Part shown: one piece after another, positions 17,056 through 24,718 of the stretch
Layout of the letters: each line of letters starts with the position of its first letter
Numbering within the stretch: the stretch's first letter is position 1
DNA from: Candidatus Cloacimonadales bacterium
GTDB lineage: Bacteria > Cloacimonadota > Cloacimonadia > Cloacimonadales > DAONDQ01
Assembly (NCBI GenBank): GCA_963662275.1
Contig: OY759316.1
Span: forward strand, 640,001 to 704,000
DNA length: 64,000 nucleotides
Reading direction: 5' to 3'
Translations under genes and position numbers: made by a program
Notes under the pieces: generated by a model
Seen by the model: the letters and a program-made list of their open reading frames with translations, nothing else
What the model was told of the DNA's origin: nothing
The model's database searches: none

Positions 17056-17183
17056 CGGACACCAGACAGCTCCCAAAACCATAGACTTCTGCCTATCATG
17101 CTCCAGGTGACAACTCTCATCACAATAGATGCTCCATTTTGTTATAATTAGATTGCATTCTAATATTAAATCCTGCAAGGATG
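17056..17183. repeat. ~125-bp direct repeat 'A', copy 1 (copy 2 at 26139-26282)
   Basis: cggacacca.cagctcccaaaaccatagacttctgcctatcatgctc...gcattctaatattaaatcctg.aaggatg shared by both copies. Confidence 0.9.
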
Positions 17184-17240
17184 AAATCCGATAGCCTTAG
17201 GCGTAAGCCTCAGGTAACCGATTACCACACATCCATTTGA

Positions 17241-19656: not shown

Positions 19657-20618
19657 CTACAAAATCGTAGGTGCTAAGACTTCGTCACAAGAAATATATC
19701 TAAATCCTTTTTTGTCAACAACTGCTAATTTAACTTGCCCGCCGACTGTTGGGATATCTTCCGTATATTTCTGAAAATCCATTTCTACTCGAAGCAGCAA
19801 GCAAGACAAATCAACTGCTTGTTGTAAACTTAATTCTCCGAGTTTTAAGATTTTTAAATCCTGTTGAATATCAGATACAGCTAGAATTTCTTCACTGATT
19901 TTGAGTAATTTCTCCTGCGATAATTCATAATCAGTAATATCCAACGTTTTGGTTATTATTGGAATAAGTTGTGGTATTAAATTCAACAATTTGAAATAAA
20001 AACCATAGAGAATACCTTCAGTGATCCCATATTGCCCATCATATACTACTGTCTGGAAATCAAGTCGTTGAATAAAACTGATTAGTTTATCATCCTCAAC
20101 TTGCATACCTGGCTGAGTATCATAAATCATGATTTGATACACTTCCGTTTTTTGAGATAATGGAGAGAAATTACTGATAATAAAAGTTGTGTAACCAACT
20201 GCATTGTTATTTGCGATGATTCTTTGATTTTCACTAATAGAAAATCTTTTAAATCAATGATTATCGTTTGTAAATCCATATTGCCGAATTGTGGATTTTG
20301 CCCGTTGATGTCTTTCTTTTCCTGTATCAATTCGGAGATTCTAATGTTGTTTATTCTTGCCGTGCCAGATGTGGTTATTGCAGTAAATTCATCATATTTA
20401 AAAAGCTTCTCTTCAAAATCTCGTGTGTGATGTGGTTTTTACTTAAAGAGATCCATAATTTCCTGTGGATCTAATGAAATTGGATTGGTTCCATTCTCTT
20501 TGTTTTACAATAAAGTGAAAAGGTCATTTTCTTCTATCACTCGAGTGAGTGATGTAACTCAAGAATCTGCTATAACTGCGAAACCATCTCTTGCTTTTAC
20601 TGTAGCTATAAATGTCAT
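19657..20618 (-). pseudogene. Disrupted proteasome-beta-like (Ntn-hydrolase) gene
   Basis: AGGAGG RBS then MTFIATVKARDGFAVIADS* (TGA at codon 20); further frame breaks; C-terminus IPTVGGQVKLAVVDKKGFRYI. Confidence 0.7.
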
Positions 20619-20778
20619 TTAATTCCTCCTTCACCGTCCCAAAATTAACTACTTATATAATACTAATCTTAAGAAAAATGTAAAGAGATTTTTACTCACT
20701 ATCTTTTCATGTAGCTCGACAAGCCCCCAAAGGTTACAAACCTTCGGGGAAAACATTATACGATCATATGGTACAATC

Positions 20779-20868
20779 GTTGGAACGCTGTTTTCAAACG
20801 GCTATGCTCTGCACTTCGGAATAGCCTAATAAATTAAGCGTTCCACCATTTGAAAATAGCGTTCCAAC
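20779..20868. repeat. GGAACGC-type REP inverted pair; the left arm is identical over 31 bp to 16789-16819
   Basis: gttggaacgctgttttcaaa / tttgaaaatagcgttccaac. Confidence 0.8.
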
Positions 20869-20874
20869 AACAAA

Positions 20875-21038
20875 TTCCCGTAGGGATGATAGATATTAAC
20901 ACTGGATTTCAATCCGGTGATATGACTGAAAATCTTCTAATTCCCATAGGGAAGAAAGATATTAACACTGGATTTCAATCCGGTGATATGAGACCCGGCA
21001 CTTTTCCTCTGAATCTCGCAGAGATGAAATCCCATAGC
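20875..21038. repeat. Tandem X-type hairpin units preceding the IS110 insertion
   Basis: agatattaacactggatttcaatccggtgatatga twice, each after an ATTCCC.TAGGGA hairpin, then aatctcgcagagatgaaatcccatagc. Confidence 0.8.
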
Positions 21039-21120
21039 TTACTATAGGAAGGTTAGAAAATTAAGGTAGAAAAACCTCCCTCGTTGATATACATAGATCA
21101 AATCAACAAAGGAGGTAACA

Positions 21121-22398
21121 ATGATTACCACATCAAAATCTAACCCAAAGAGGTTTTTTGTCAACTCAGAAATGATGCTTGTTGGCATTGATATCAGCAA
21201 GCACAAACACAGTGTGTATTTTTGTGATTTTACAGGTGAACGGAAGCGTAAGCCATTTTTTATTACAAACAATCATGATGGTTTTCAGTATCTGCTAAAA
21301 GAAGCAGAACAGCAAAAGCGTTTGTGGAATCTGAACGAGATTGTATTTGGAATGGAACCAACAGGTTCATATGTAAAGCCACTCCAGTACTTCTTGGAAG
21401 AACGCTGCTATCAAATCCAAAGCATCAACCCATTACACACTAAAAGATGGAAGGATATTGAAGATAATCATCCATCCAAGAATGATTTGAAAGACAGTAT
21501 TATCATTACCTCTCTGTTAAGAATGGGCAAGAGCATCCATCATCGGAGACCTGAAGGTGTTTTCGCGGAGTTGAACAACTATGCAGCTTATTATCACCAG
21601 TTAATCACAGATATTCGCAGGCAGAGGAACTATCTGGAAGCCTCTTATGCCTGTTACTTTCCTGAATTGAGTAACTTTTTCAAATTTAACAGTACGGGAG
21701 TAATGTATATCATGGAGTGTTTTCCTCTTCCTCAGGATATCGTAAATGCAGGATATGAGAATTTTCTGAAGATTATGAAAACAAAAAGCAAAGGGTGCAT
21801 AGCTACAGAGAAGCTTCACAGTTTATATCAGGTATCTCTAACAAGTATTGGCATGAGTCAGGGAGCGGATAGTGCGAGAGTGGTCATAAATGCGATCTAT
21901 GAGGATATCAGCTATAAACAATACCATCTCAAACAAATCAAAACAGCAATCATGACATGTGTAGATAAAATCAGTTATGGATCGTTATTGGTGACAATAC
22001 CTGGTTTGAGTAAAGTATCAGTGGGGTTAATTCTGGCGGAGACTGGAGATATCAATCAATATGGTCGATATCAGGATTTAGTCAAACTTGCCGGATTGAG
22101 TTTAAAACACAATCAATCAGGAGAATACCATGGGCAATATCATATCTCTAAGGTAGGAAGAGTAAGGTTGCGAAGGATCTTGTATATGCTTACTCTGGAA
22201 ATGATTATAAACAATCAATTAATCAATCAGATATATAATTATCAAGTAAAAAAGCGAGGTAATAACAAGGTCAAAACTATCGTTTCTTTGAGCAGTAAAT
22301 TACTGGGAATCATGTACTCAATGGTTAAATATGAAAGGTCGTTTGATCCTGAACAGCGAAAGCTATATGCAGGTTATTTAACTGAAAATAATCAGTGA
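21121..22398 (+). CDS. IS110-family DEDD recombinase/transposase
   Basis: VGIDISK, GMEPTG, KNDLKDS, IPGLS and QSG...ISKVG..LR motifs. Confidence 0.93.
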   Translation: MITTSKSNPKRFFVNSEMMLVGIDISKHKHSVYFCDFTGERKRKPFFITNNHDGFQYLLKEAEQQKRLWNLNEIVFGMEPTGSYVKPLQYFLEERCYQIQSINPLHTKRWKDIEDNHPSKNDLKDSIIITSLLRMGKSIHHRRPEGVFAELNNYAAYYHQLITDIRRQRNYLEASYACYFPELSNFFKFNSTGVMYIMECFPLPQDIVNAGYENFLKIMKTKSKGCIATEKLHSLYQVSLTSIGMSQGADSARVVINAIYEDISYKQYHLKQIKTAIMTCVDKISYGSLLVTIPGLSKVSVGLILAETGDINQYGRYQDLVKLAGLSLKHNQSGEYHGQYHISKVGRVRLRRILYMLTLEMIINNQLINQIYNYQVKKRGNNKVKTIVSLSSKLLGIMYSMVKYERSFDPEQRKLYAGYLTENNQ

Positions 22399-22439
22399 GC
22401 CAAGAAAAAAAAGTAGTCAAAAAATAATGGAGGTGTTTA

Positions 22440-22670
22440 GATTGGTTCACTCGCCGGATGATGTAGTCATTAGGCACTAAGGCTTGTTTACAAGACCTTC
22501 TACCATAGCTCATTATAGCACACCGGCGGGTATTATCTCAGATAGGATAAAGTAAGAATAGGATACCATCAGAAGGTAATCCAGTATATCAGCAAGATCG
22601 GGATGTAGAACCAAGAGAGCTTTGATAAGTAATATTCGATTTAATCATAGAATTCAGATCGAAAATCAGC
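22440..22670 (+). ncRNA. Putative bridge/seek RNA region (boundaries approximate)
   Basis: Lies in the 3' NCR of the IS110; contains ccatagc (left target flank) and tatatcagc (element right end); followed by a strong hairpin. Confidence 0.55.
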
Positions 22671-22673
22671 GTC

Positions 22674-22728
22674 TCTGGAACCCTGCAATGACGCTTCGGT
22701 ACCCTACGCGTCATTGCAGGGTTCCAGA
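22674..22728 (+). terminator. 21-bp perfect stem-loop in the IS110 3' region
   Basis: tctggaaccctgcaatgacgc / gcgtcattgcagggttccaga. Confidence 0.65.
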
Positions 22729-22825
22729 AAGCCAAGTACTATGAATATATTATAATATATAACTATCTAACTATATCAGCCTAACGTGTGAACGTCAGGT
22801 AACATATCCCCCAAACACCATTAGA

Positions 22826-24718
22826 GGAGATGTCCCGAAACTAGCATGATTTTATTTTCTTCTGTTGTAAAATATGTGATTGTTTTTACAGGCAAACTAA
22901 ATTACTCAATAGTTTCCGAAAAGCGATGCAAAGACAAGGAAAAACGGAGTAATATTTACCTAATTCATGTTTGAATTCTGGTAGGAAGAGTCTTCATCAG
23001 GCTTTTCCTTCAGTATTTTGTAAGTGCAGAAACATTTTCCCTATATTATGTCCTAAAAAGAGGAGGGATAACTGTTCCTTGCATTTTCTCAATGAACGGA
23101 CAGTAAATCTCTCAAACTTCCTGTTCCACTTCATGAAAGCAAATACAGCCTCCGGTTCGATGCCTCTTTGCTTTCTCAGCTTGTCGCCTTTTTCAGAAAG
23201 CAGATTATTGACTGTCTGACGTTTTAGTGGAGCTATATGAGGATCGTAGGTCAGTGATTTATGAGTTTTATCCTTGTAGGGAATACACTTTTTATTGTGA
23301 GGACATTCTCTGCAGTCATTACATATATAGGTTTTCACGATTCGTTTCGGACCGTTCTTCTCTGTCTCTTCTTCCTTGATTTTGACCAGTCTCCGATTAA
23401 ATTGACAGACCCACTCATCATGCTCCTCATCATAGCTGAAGCCTGTCAGAAGAGAGTCCCGATAATCTCTCTTATAATCCTGGGTCTTGAGATAGCTTGT
23501 TATCTCTTTTTCAGCAGCATAATTCAAATTCAGCGCAGTGCCATAGGCAGCATCTCCAACAACGTCGGTAGGATATTGTCCCAATTCATCATGCATTTGC
23601 TCCATGAGATTGGGAAATTCAACGGTTTCTTTAGGGATATTGAATAAGTGAATGCCTGTGACAAATTGCTCTGAAGTTCCGATACTGGCAACATAACCCG
23701 GTGCCAGCTGTCCATTTTTCAATCGCATAAATGTGGCATCATTATCAGTCTTGGATGTGCTGCTGCGTCCTTCTCCAATTATCTCAAGCTGTTGCTCATA
23801 TTTCTCCAGCTTAGTTATATCATTGCTCTTTGATTTGGAGATTTCGCGCAAAAGAGATTTGATTTTCTTGATAGCCCGAGTATCTGACGGATGATTTTTC
23901 TGTAGTCGGGACATTGCTTCTTTCAGCTTGTTTTCTGCTGAGACCAGTCTATCTCTGATCTGTTCAGATGCGACTGTAGCAGTTTTCTCTGATTCAACCG
24001 CATGCAATTGCTCACCAAGCTCAAGAAGATCAGCGGTTCCATATTGCTGTTGCTCTTCCTGATTATATTCCTCGATCTTTTTAAACAATCCCTCAACTCG
24101 TGTCTTGACCAGTTCCTGATAACGAAGCGCATTGCTTTTCCAGATGTAGGAATTCTTGCCGGCATTTGCGTGAATCGTCGTCCCGTCAACAAAACAGGTG
24201 TCGAGATCAAGATATCCTAATGATGATGCTTTCAGTACTACCTGATAAAATACATCAATAAGAATATCAGAACACTTAGTCCAGGCAAAGGTGTTGATCG
24301 TTCTGAAATCAGGTTCCTGTTCTCCTGCCAGCCAGATAAAATTGATGTTCTCCCGAACAGCCTTAGCTATCTTCCGACAGGTATAAATACCATTGATATA
24401 GGCATACACAATGATCTTCAACATCATCTTGGGATGATAAGCAGGTGTACCTTCATCAGAGTATCTTGTGTATAGCTCAGATAAGTCCAGTTGCTCAACG
24501 ACATCGTTAACATAACGAACCATGTGCTGGGGAGGTATTCTCTCTTCAATATTAAGTCCATAGAGTGTCCCCTGATTCGGATTGTGCTCTCTGAAATTCA
24601 TAATTCTCTCTATGCTTAGTTTTTAAAGGCAACAATACACCCTATAACAATATGTCAAGTAATATGATTAATATTTAATAGTTGCTATTTTTCTATCATT
24701 TAGTTTCGGGACATCTCC
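22826..24718 (-). mobile_element. IS1182-family insertion sequence, copy 2 (inverted, near-identical to copy 1)
   Basis: Same 18-bp IRs, same 1893-bp length and identical protein. Confidence 0.95.
22997..24601 (-). CDS. IS1182-family DDE transposase
   Basis: Translation identical to 17358-18962. Confidence 0.93.
   Translation of the reverse strand: MNFREHNPNQGTLYGLNIEERIPPQHMVRYVNDVVEQLDLSELYTRYSDEGTPAYHPKMMLKIIVYAYINGIYTCRKIAKAVRENINFIWLAGEQEPDFRTINTFAWTKCSDILIDVFYQVVLKASSLGYLDLDTCFVDGTTIHANAGKNSYIWKSNALRYQELVKTRVEGLFKKIEEYNQEEQQQYGTADLLELGEQLHAVESEKTATVASEQIRDRLVSAENKLKEAMSRLQKNHPSDTRAIKKIKSLLREISKSKSNDITKLEKYEQQLEIIGEGRSSTSKTDNDATFMRLKNGQLAPGYVASIGTSEQFVTGIHLFNIPKETVEFPNLMEQMHDELGQYPTDVVGDAAYGTALNLNYAAEKEITSYLKTQDYKRDYRDSLLTGFSYDEEHDEWVCQFNRRLVKIKEEETEKNGPKRIVKTYICNDCRECPHNKKCIPYKDKTHKSLTYDPHIAPLKRQTVNNLLSEKGDKLRKQRGIEPEAVFAFMKWNRKFERFTVRSLRKCKEQLSLLFLGHNIGKMFLHLQNTEGKA

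Follow-up and report, generated by a model that had tools for sequence, protein, structure and literature searches.

How does an insertion sequence (IS) come to lie, always in one orientation, at a short motif that recurs in otherwise different repeats of its host genome? The question is raised by a 1742-bp block at 21039–22780 (+ strand) of the window, the stretch of 64,000 nucleotides from a Candidatus Cloacimonadales bacterium that was analysed here. The original prediction, made from the letters alone, had seen in it an IS110/IS1111 element inserted in a repeat called X, with guide-like matches in its 3′ non-coding region. The block is an intact, recently active IS110-family insertion sequence, and we believe, with a probability of roughly 85%, that its right end encodes a bridge (seek) RNA of about 160–175 nt, modelled at 22442–22614, the loops of which would recognise both the target and the element's own ends.

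Copies, junctions and recombinase

A genome search finds the block in six copies in the 4.38-Mb genome, 100% identical over their full length, with flanks that diverge beyond the limits of 21039–22780; the element can equally be placed at 21036–22777. The trinucleotide AGC borders both ends in 6/6 copies, as had been noticed for the window copy (21036–21038 and 22778–22780), and the left triplet is a copy of the core that could stem from the element or from the target. These boundaries are confirmed because uninterrupted paralogues carry one AGC: five units beside copy 3 read gatcatAGCctgtagtgg and four members of another repeat read ATAGCCTAATAAATTAAG, which also backs the target as it had originally been reconstructed. 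The element consists of an 82-nt left end, one open reading frame (21121–22398) and a 382-nt right end in which there is no convincing reading frame.

Read in the orientation of the element, the left flanks of the six copies are aaatAGC, cacAGC, catAGC, catAGC, gatAGC and tatAGC, and the right flanks ctaata, ctaaag, ctgtag, ctaacg, ttaatg and ctaata. Position −2 is A in 6/6 and −1 is T in 5/6, bearing out the atAGC consensus that had been expected of other insertions of this IS, while on the right the copies have C at +1 (5/6), T at +2 (6/6) and A at +3 (5/6). The preferred site is therefore approximately (c)ATAGC·CTAA(t), where the dot marks the junction, and it is always used in the one orientation.

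The recombinase gene (21121–22398, +) is preceded by a good Shine-Dalgarno sequence, is intact in all six identical copies and encodes 425 amino acids (aa), with a DEDD RuvC-like domain and a PF02371 domain, as identified by domain, NCBIfam and structure-chain matches: PF01548 at 4e-26 (92 bits vs 29), PF02371 at 9.4e-16 (58 bits vs 21), NCBIfam NF033542, “IS110 family RNA-guided transposase,” at 177.2 bits against a cut-off of 140, and the ISCro4 and IS621 chains of structures 8wt6 and 9t56 at E values of about 1e-11 to 1e-12. In the alignment with ISCro4, the motifs GID (D24), ME.T (E79), D..D (D122, D125) and QSG (S333) match their counterparts; the catalytic roles of these D/E/D/D and serine residues are taken from the literature.

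A predicted guide RNA in the right end

The right end is predicted to hold an RNA domain of 173 nt (22442–22614, +) composed of two modules, each with a stem, an internal loop and a hairpin. The target-binding module (22450–22530) has an outer stem formed by 22450–22464 and 22518–22530 and an inner hairpin at 22479–22499; the donor-binding module (22534–22605) has an outer stem formed by 22534–22543 and 22597–22605 and an inner hairpin at 22561–22582. In the first module, the 5′ loop strand ATTAGGC (22469–22475) is the complement of GCCTAAT, that is, of the last two core bases and the right target flank, and the 3′ loop strand CCATAGC (22503–22509) is identical to the top-strand left flank plus core and would pair with the bottom strand. 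In the second, the 5′ loop strand AGTAAG (22551–22556) is the complement of CTTACT, formed by the last core base and the left end TTACT (21039–21043, +), which would be the right donor flank at the circle junction, and the 3′ loop strand TATATCAGC (22585–22593) is identical to the last 9 nt of the element (22772–22780, +), the left donor flank plus core. The two guides of a pair overlap on the core, by GC for the target and by C for the donor, and loop strands complementary to both strands of target and donor, the mark of a bridge or seek RNA, are thus found. All four guides sit in the internal loops of the predicted fold and not in its stems. The fold z-scores are −6.2 for the whole non-coding region and −3.5 for the RNA domain.

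In outline this is the arrangement that had been proposed, with target-binding followed by donor-binding guides in the 3′ non-coding region; the loops are so placed, and CCATAGC and TATATCAGC keep the roles of left target guide and left donor guide first given to them. The right target guide, which could not then be assigned with confidence, is now identified as ATTAGGC, 5′ of the left target guide. The right donor guide had been sought in an agtaa at 22628–22632, which is present but lies in a 17-nt stretch absent from the relative described below, and which is uninformative because 64% of shuffles contain it.

These chance levels come from 5000 dinucleotide-preserving shuffles of the 362-nt non-coding region. 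The longer guides are infrequent in them, TATATCAGC occurring in 0.7%, CCATAGC in 3.1% and ATTAGGC in 4.7% of shuffles, and all four guides together, taken as 6-, 8-, 6- and 6-mers located anywhere, occur in just 2 of 5000. The original caution that the shorter matches could be chance holds for agtaa.

Relatives were sought among 232 genomes of the same phylum, and close ones were found in a single genome, G096. The G096 element measures 1740 bp, is present in seven copies, and encodes a recombinase 52% identical to that of the window, with D24, E79, D122, D125 and S333 invariant between the two. Its left junction reads (t)GTAGC·TTGCTATATT and its right junction TTCTATATCAGC·ATAG(g/c). The right ends of the two elements align with stems and hairpins conserved: of the 40 pairs in the consensus fold, 33 are the same in both, 5 differ on one side and 2 on both, and no pair is broken. 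At the aligned loop positions, by contrast with these stems, the guides differ. The G096 right target guide is CCTATGT, complement of (a)CATAGG, where the window has ATTAGGC; its left target guide is ATGTAGC, matching the left flank tGTAGC, in place of CCATAGC; its right donor guide is GGCAAG, complement of CTTGC(c) and thus matching a left end of TTGCT, in place of AGTAAG; and its left donor guide is CATATCAGC, matching its own right end, in place of TATATCAGC. Within the paired stretches the DNA differs at five positions (left target −2; right target +1, +4 and +5; left end +3), and 5/5 are matched by the guide base at the aligned loop position, the only departures from standard pairing being two G–T wobbles, both in G096. 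As read from these two IS species, the guides covary with target and donor while the scaffold stays constant. The outcome feared in the original prediction, that the matches would fall in paired stems and fail to covary with targets, is therefore not what is seen in the one relative compared.

Could the protein alone, or repeats at the DNA level, choose the target, the short matches being coincidence or remnants of duplicated ends? Taken singly, the 6-mers are not rare in shuffles (AGTAAG 23%, ATTAGG 20%, CATAGC 15%), TATATCAGC in the 3′ region could in principle be a duplicate of the right end, and the case for an RNA guide is here a case made from sequence. We nevertheless regard this explanation as very improbable: the four matches occupy equivalent strands of two equivalent internal loops, their joint occurrence in shuffles is as low as given above, the same aligned positions have changed in G096 along with its own target and left end over constant stems, and the IS110 family is reported to be RNA-guided by experiment (PMC11208160, PMC11187229).

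Several observations do weigh against an RNA guide at 22442–22614. The match between guide and target is imperfect at individual insertions, reaching 2/5 bases right of the core at copy 3 and meeting a C at −1 at copy 2, and two perfect CATAGCCTAAT sites stand empty elsewhere in the genome. The five compensated positions are a small sample because the covariation covers only two IS species; double compensatory pairs in the scaffold number just two, and the G096 RNA domain has a fold z-score of −1.7, with 10/200 shuffles folding equally well. Transcription of 22442–22614 would follow by analogy with IS621 and ISEc11; a look through the sequencing runs for this sequence turned up none of RNA, and a scan with promoter and terminator consensus sequences gave seven promoter-like sites where 7.3 were expected and one terminator-like site against 1.1 in shuffles, none of them convincing. 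Finally, an Rfam 15 scan of 20500–23300 (E ≤ 10) returned 14 matches, all sub-threshold and none to a bridge-RNA family, it not being established whether Rfam 15 holds such a model; the strongest, to a microRNA model, fell on the long hairpin discussed below and scored 31 bits against a gathering score of 100.

With an RNA guide, the element would excise as a circle that joins its right end to its left end across a single AGC, giving the junction ...TATATCAGCTTACTATAGG... Loop 2 of the RNA would hold this circle junction, with AGTAAG pairing to the left end (C + TTACT), and loop 1 would hold the target, with CCATAGC pairing to the bottom strand left of the core. The 425-aa recombinase, through its DEDD and catalytic-serine domains, would exchange strands at the shared (A)GC while held by the RNA on both DNAs, and the outcome would be a simple insertion, flanked by AGC and in a single orientation, at sites like cATAGC·CTAAt. 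Circle formation, transcription and the chemistry of strand exchange are what we infer from IS621 and ISEc11 (PMC11208160, PMC11187229).

Insertion sites and host repeats

The specificity of the element is a motif of about 9–11 bp, (a/c)A(t/c)AGC·CT(a)(a)(t), found in at least three different repeat families. This makes a recombinase programmed against the X family, as originally proposed, too narrow a description. The X repeat itself exists: its left motif has 24 genome matches at ≤4 mismatches, 15/24 of them with ATAGC at the same offset, yet X-type sites hold only 2/6 insertions, namely copy 3 and copy 4, the window copy. In the window, the left half of the interrupted repeat (CTGAATCTCGCAGAGATGAAA + tcccat) forms the left target flank at 21009–21035 (+), and the right half, a CTAACGTgtgaACGTCAGg hairpin plus tail, forms the right target flank at 22781–22825 (+). 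Copy 3 lies in the final unit of a tandem array, the five other units of which are the gatcatAGCctgtagtgg sequences with a single AGC mentioned above. The repeat that holds copies 1 and 6 has four empty members with the sequence ATAGCCTAATAAATTAAG, resembling what the two copies give when their flanks are joined, and one of these empty members is in the window near 20821. Copy 2 is inside a tandem ttccacacagcctaaaggagt repeat. The motif ATAGCCTAA has 26 occurrences in the genome.

Such surroundings invite a different reading of the six copies, in which the element, though recently copied, is now inert, or owes its spread to homologous recombination or to the duplication of segments rich in repeats, so that the likeness of the flanks would be no more than repeat context. 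Several insertions are indeed inside repeat families or tandem arrays, and in contigs from four sequencing runs compared with 20400–23400 we found neither a circle junction nor an empty-site joint. The six flanks, however, represent at least four unrelated contexts with only a motif of about 9 bp in common, the reading frame is intact in all identical copies, and the catalytic residues align, which leaves this reading scarcely plausible. Loose contig ends at 22295 and 22467 in the same comparison read like the G096-type element, and a relative of that type therefore seems present in the same runs. For 2/6 insertions, empty orthologous sites were also sought in a same-genus genome (G001), where flanking genes are only 73–79% identical, and no syntenic empty site was found, that genome having diverged too far.

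The layout of the X repeat is GAATCTCG.AGAGATGAAA, then 3–4 variable bases, ATAGC(C), a hairpin of variable stem and a ..CCCCAAAC...GGGGTGACA tail. Besides the two halves in the window (21009–21035 and 22781–22825), it is found at C1:1702343–1703222 of the genome and at about 20 other places, and includes the array of copy 3, a six-unit tandem whose last unit is the occupied one. The repeat could be a REP-like (repetitive extragenic palindromic) element, a small RNA or a miniature inverted-repeat transposable element. Elsewhere in the window just one sequence comes close to the reconstructed target, GAAATCCGATAGCCTTAGG at 17183–17201 (three mismatches), and it probably marks a further site of the X type. 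A second repeat family, GGCTATGC...CTTCG(G/A)AATAGCCTAATAAATTAAGCGTTCC, occurs in the window at about 20800–20850 (site 20821) and in the genome at C1:1218059, 3357561 and 4123172; its GGCTAT can pair with ATAGCC, and four of its members are empty while two are occupied by the IS. For annotation of this genome, the IS accounts for six insertions, and several local repeat families carry the short motif that it seeks.

The G096 insertions offer observations of their own. In five of the seven, the right flank is a small hairpin (ATAG-NNN-loop-NNN-CTGTTG, the stem differing from site to site) that follows directly 3′ of the insertion (flanks of L024–L029), so that the target there looks like a REP-type repeat. 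Two copies (L024 and L025) end in ..TATATCAAC, with a right junction of ...CAAC, and not in ..TATATCAGC, with the left AGC kept, a hint of what would be expected from a mismatched middle base inside the exchanged core. A further, 94%-identical copy (L019) is abnormal at its left junction, which reads ..ggttgTGCTATATT and lacks the GTAGC target; since another copy is only about 2.5 kb away, a rearrangement between copies may be responsible.

Inside the left end of the window element, a hairpin at 21074–21116 (+) spans the Shine-Dalgarno sequence AAGGAGGT. Its 15-nt arms, ACCTCCCTCGTTGAT and ATCAACAAAGGAGGT, are 87% complementary and would sequester the ribosome-binding site of the recombinase gene, which may dampen translation from read-through transcripts. 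Outside the element, 216 bp to its right, a gene at 22997–24601 (−) encodes a 534-aa transposase with DDE_Tnp_1_6, DUF772 and DDE_Tnp_1 domains; its contig depth in the sequencing runs is about 30 times that of unique flank, and it is therefore probably a high-copy IS. To the left, at about 20870–20995, a repeat of about 60 bp (..gatattaacactggatttcaatccggtgatatga..) is present twice in tandem, also with high contig depth and with a weak, sub-threshold Rfam match to Acido-Lenti-1 (22.9 bits vs 37).

Long hairpin, family placement and relatives

Beyond the RNA domain, the 21-bp stem that had been pointed out in the 3′ region is found at 22674–22728 (+), as a long hairpin with 26-nt arms that are 92% complementary and include 21 contiguous pairs. 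Its apex, GACGC-TYCGGTACCCTMC-GCGTC (also given as GACGC-TTCGGTACCCTAC-GCGTC), is nearly invariant, is centred on the palindrome GGTACC and occurs in this genome in the six IS copies only. In G096 the position of the hairpin is conserved, with 10/23 predicted pairs changed on both sides and none broken. Its candidate roles are a 3′ handle of the RNA, a processing signal, a dimerisation loop, and a DNA palindrome bound by protein.

The element might, on this evidence, be RNA-guided by a functional RNA that is longer than, or bounded differently from, the domain at 22442–22614, running through 22674–22728 with the hairpin as an essential third module (serving, for example, as a 3′ handle, as a dimerisation loop, or in processing or termination). 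Pairing kept through changes on both sides between IS species and an apex confined to the six copies both speak for this, as does the reported occurrence of seekRNA in both short and long forms (PMC11187229). However, conservation is poor across the 60 nt that separate the hairpin from the RNA domain, where there is also a 17-nt indel; no T-run follows the hairpin in the window or in the G096 element, and the conservation of the hairpin would be accounted for equally by a DNA palindrome to which a protein dimer binds. We consider the longer RNA unlikely, though a real possibility, and keep to the shorter two-module domain.

For every feature testable from its sequence, the element is a member of the IS110 family in the broad sense, including site- and orientation-specific insertion with a short sequence common to its ends and target. 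The family half of the original “IS110/IS1111” label is thus upheld, by the domains and NF033542, whereas placement in the narrower IS1111 group is not secured, because the recombinase has 425 aa and the canonical subterminal inverted repeats were not found. Several traits do resemble that group (ISEc11, ISPa11 and ISKpn4), the elements of which are described as having a short left end and, beyond the recombinase gene, a long right end that carries the RNA (Siddiquee et al. 2024, PMC11187229; Durrant et al. 2024, PMC11208160) and for which bridge RNAs in the right end are reported (PMC11208160). Downstream of tnp, the window element likewise has a long non-coding region with a predicted RNA. 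In IS1111-type seekRNAs, as described in PMC11187229, the top-strand match lies 5′ of the bottom-strand match in an RNA downstream of tnp, and here, too, the guide predicted to pair with the top strand is 5′ of that for the bottom strand. Also as in IS1111-group elements, insertion is orientation-specific and adjoins hairpin-forming repeats, with junction bases common to element and target.

Other traits set the element apart. The transposases of IS1111-type elements are given as 330–350 aa and those of the IS110 subgroup as 395–455 aa (PMC11187229); the 425-aa recombinase is outside the first range and inside the second. IS1111-type subterminal inverted repeats (11–13 bp, near-perfect, with left extensions of 7/6 bp and right extensions of 3 bp) were not found at the IS ends: the best inverted repeat there is 12/14, with its right arm 2–3 nt from the end and its left arm 46 nt inside, and near the ends there is only TATAG and an interrupted GTTAGA repeat, which the G096 element does not have in common. 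The C-terminal motif is GL-L----SG, where GL-P----S/TG is given for the group (PMC11187229), and the conserved 21-bp hairpin 3′ of the RNA is extra. Certain IS110-type elements are reported to have a non-coding region downstream (PMC11187229), and the window element may belong with these.

With IS621 and ISCro4 the element has in common the DEDD RuvC-like domain with a serine-bearing C-terminal domain, a donor formed by the junction of right and left ends, and, by prediction, an RNA in which each of two internal loops bears a left and a right guide overlapping on a short core. The proteins align weakly, as the E values above attest. In IS621 the RNA is in the left end, the 5′ strand of each loop pairing with the bottom strand and the 3′ strand with the top strand, according to PMC11208160, whereas here it is in the right end and the order of loop strands is reversed; the core is CT in IS621 and (A)GC here. 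By description only, the element can also be likened to ISPpu9 and ISPpu10 of Pseudomonas putida, IS110-family elements of a different host phylum that are described as targeting REP, with insertion in repetitive extragenic sequences and, for ISPpu9, a small RNA gene downstream of the transposase gene (PMC12288879).

Further relatives proved scarce. A single-protein pattern gave no close relative in genome contigs, a two-protein-alignment pattern gave there only the G096 element, at six loci on one contig (L030–L035), and protein patterns gave no close relative in metagenome and viral contigs. A DNA pattern of the RNA scaffold had no match in viral contigs, and the 13 metagenome loci that it returned were judged by eye to be false positives, G+C-rich and unrelated to the element. 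In a plasmid collection, tblastn returned 56 records, all below 60% identity and the best at about 33% (Bacillaceae IS110-family genes), too distant for alignment of the RNA. Four distant relatives (L020–L023), with 26–31% protein identity, have 3′ non-coding regions with other scaffolds and lie on single short contigs on which the ends could not be fixed. Two of them, L021 (genome G123) and L022 (G103), at 28–29% protein identity, are on contigs beginning (c/g)AGCTTCCTG and AGCTTCTTG, and at the aligned 3′ positions they have GGAAG and AGAAG, which are complementary to CTTCC and CTTCT, respectively. They may follow the same logic for the right donor guide, with the same AGC core, which is a hint of covariation only. 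A literature search on Cloacimonadota together with IS110 found nothing relevant.

What, then, does the locus add? Most likely it is a well-supported but ordinary new example of the bridge/seek-RNA mechanism already described in 2024. That the window and G096 elements represent a distinct bridge-recombinase lineage, with an IS110-length enzyme of about 425 aa, an IS1111-style right-end RNA of reversed guide order, no canonical subterminal repeats and the hairpin as a third conserved module, we would call doubtful; if it is true, the 21-bp hairpin would act in RNA 3′-end formation, RNA dimerisation or recombinase loading. For the family, the locus implies that placement of the RNA in the right end and the order of its guides are not always coupled to the short IS1111-type enzyme and its subterminal repeats. 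It would extend elements of the bridge/seek-RNA type to a little-studied, mostly uncultured phylum. Together with its G096 relative it forms a natural retargeting pair, in which all four predicted guide segments track different targets and ends on a constant RNA scaffold, and the pair thus lends itself readily to tests of programmability in a lineage remote from the E. coli model systems.

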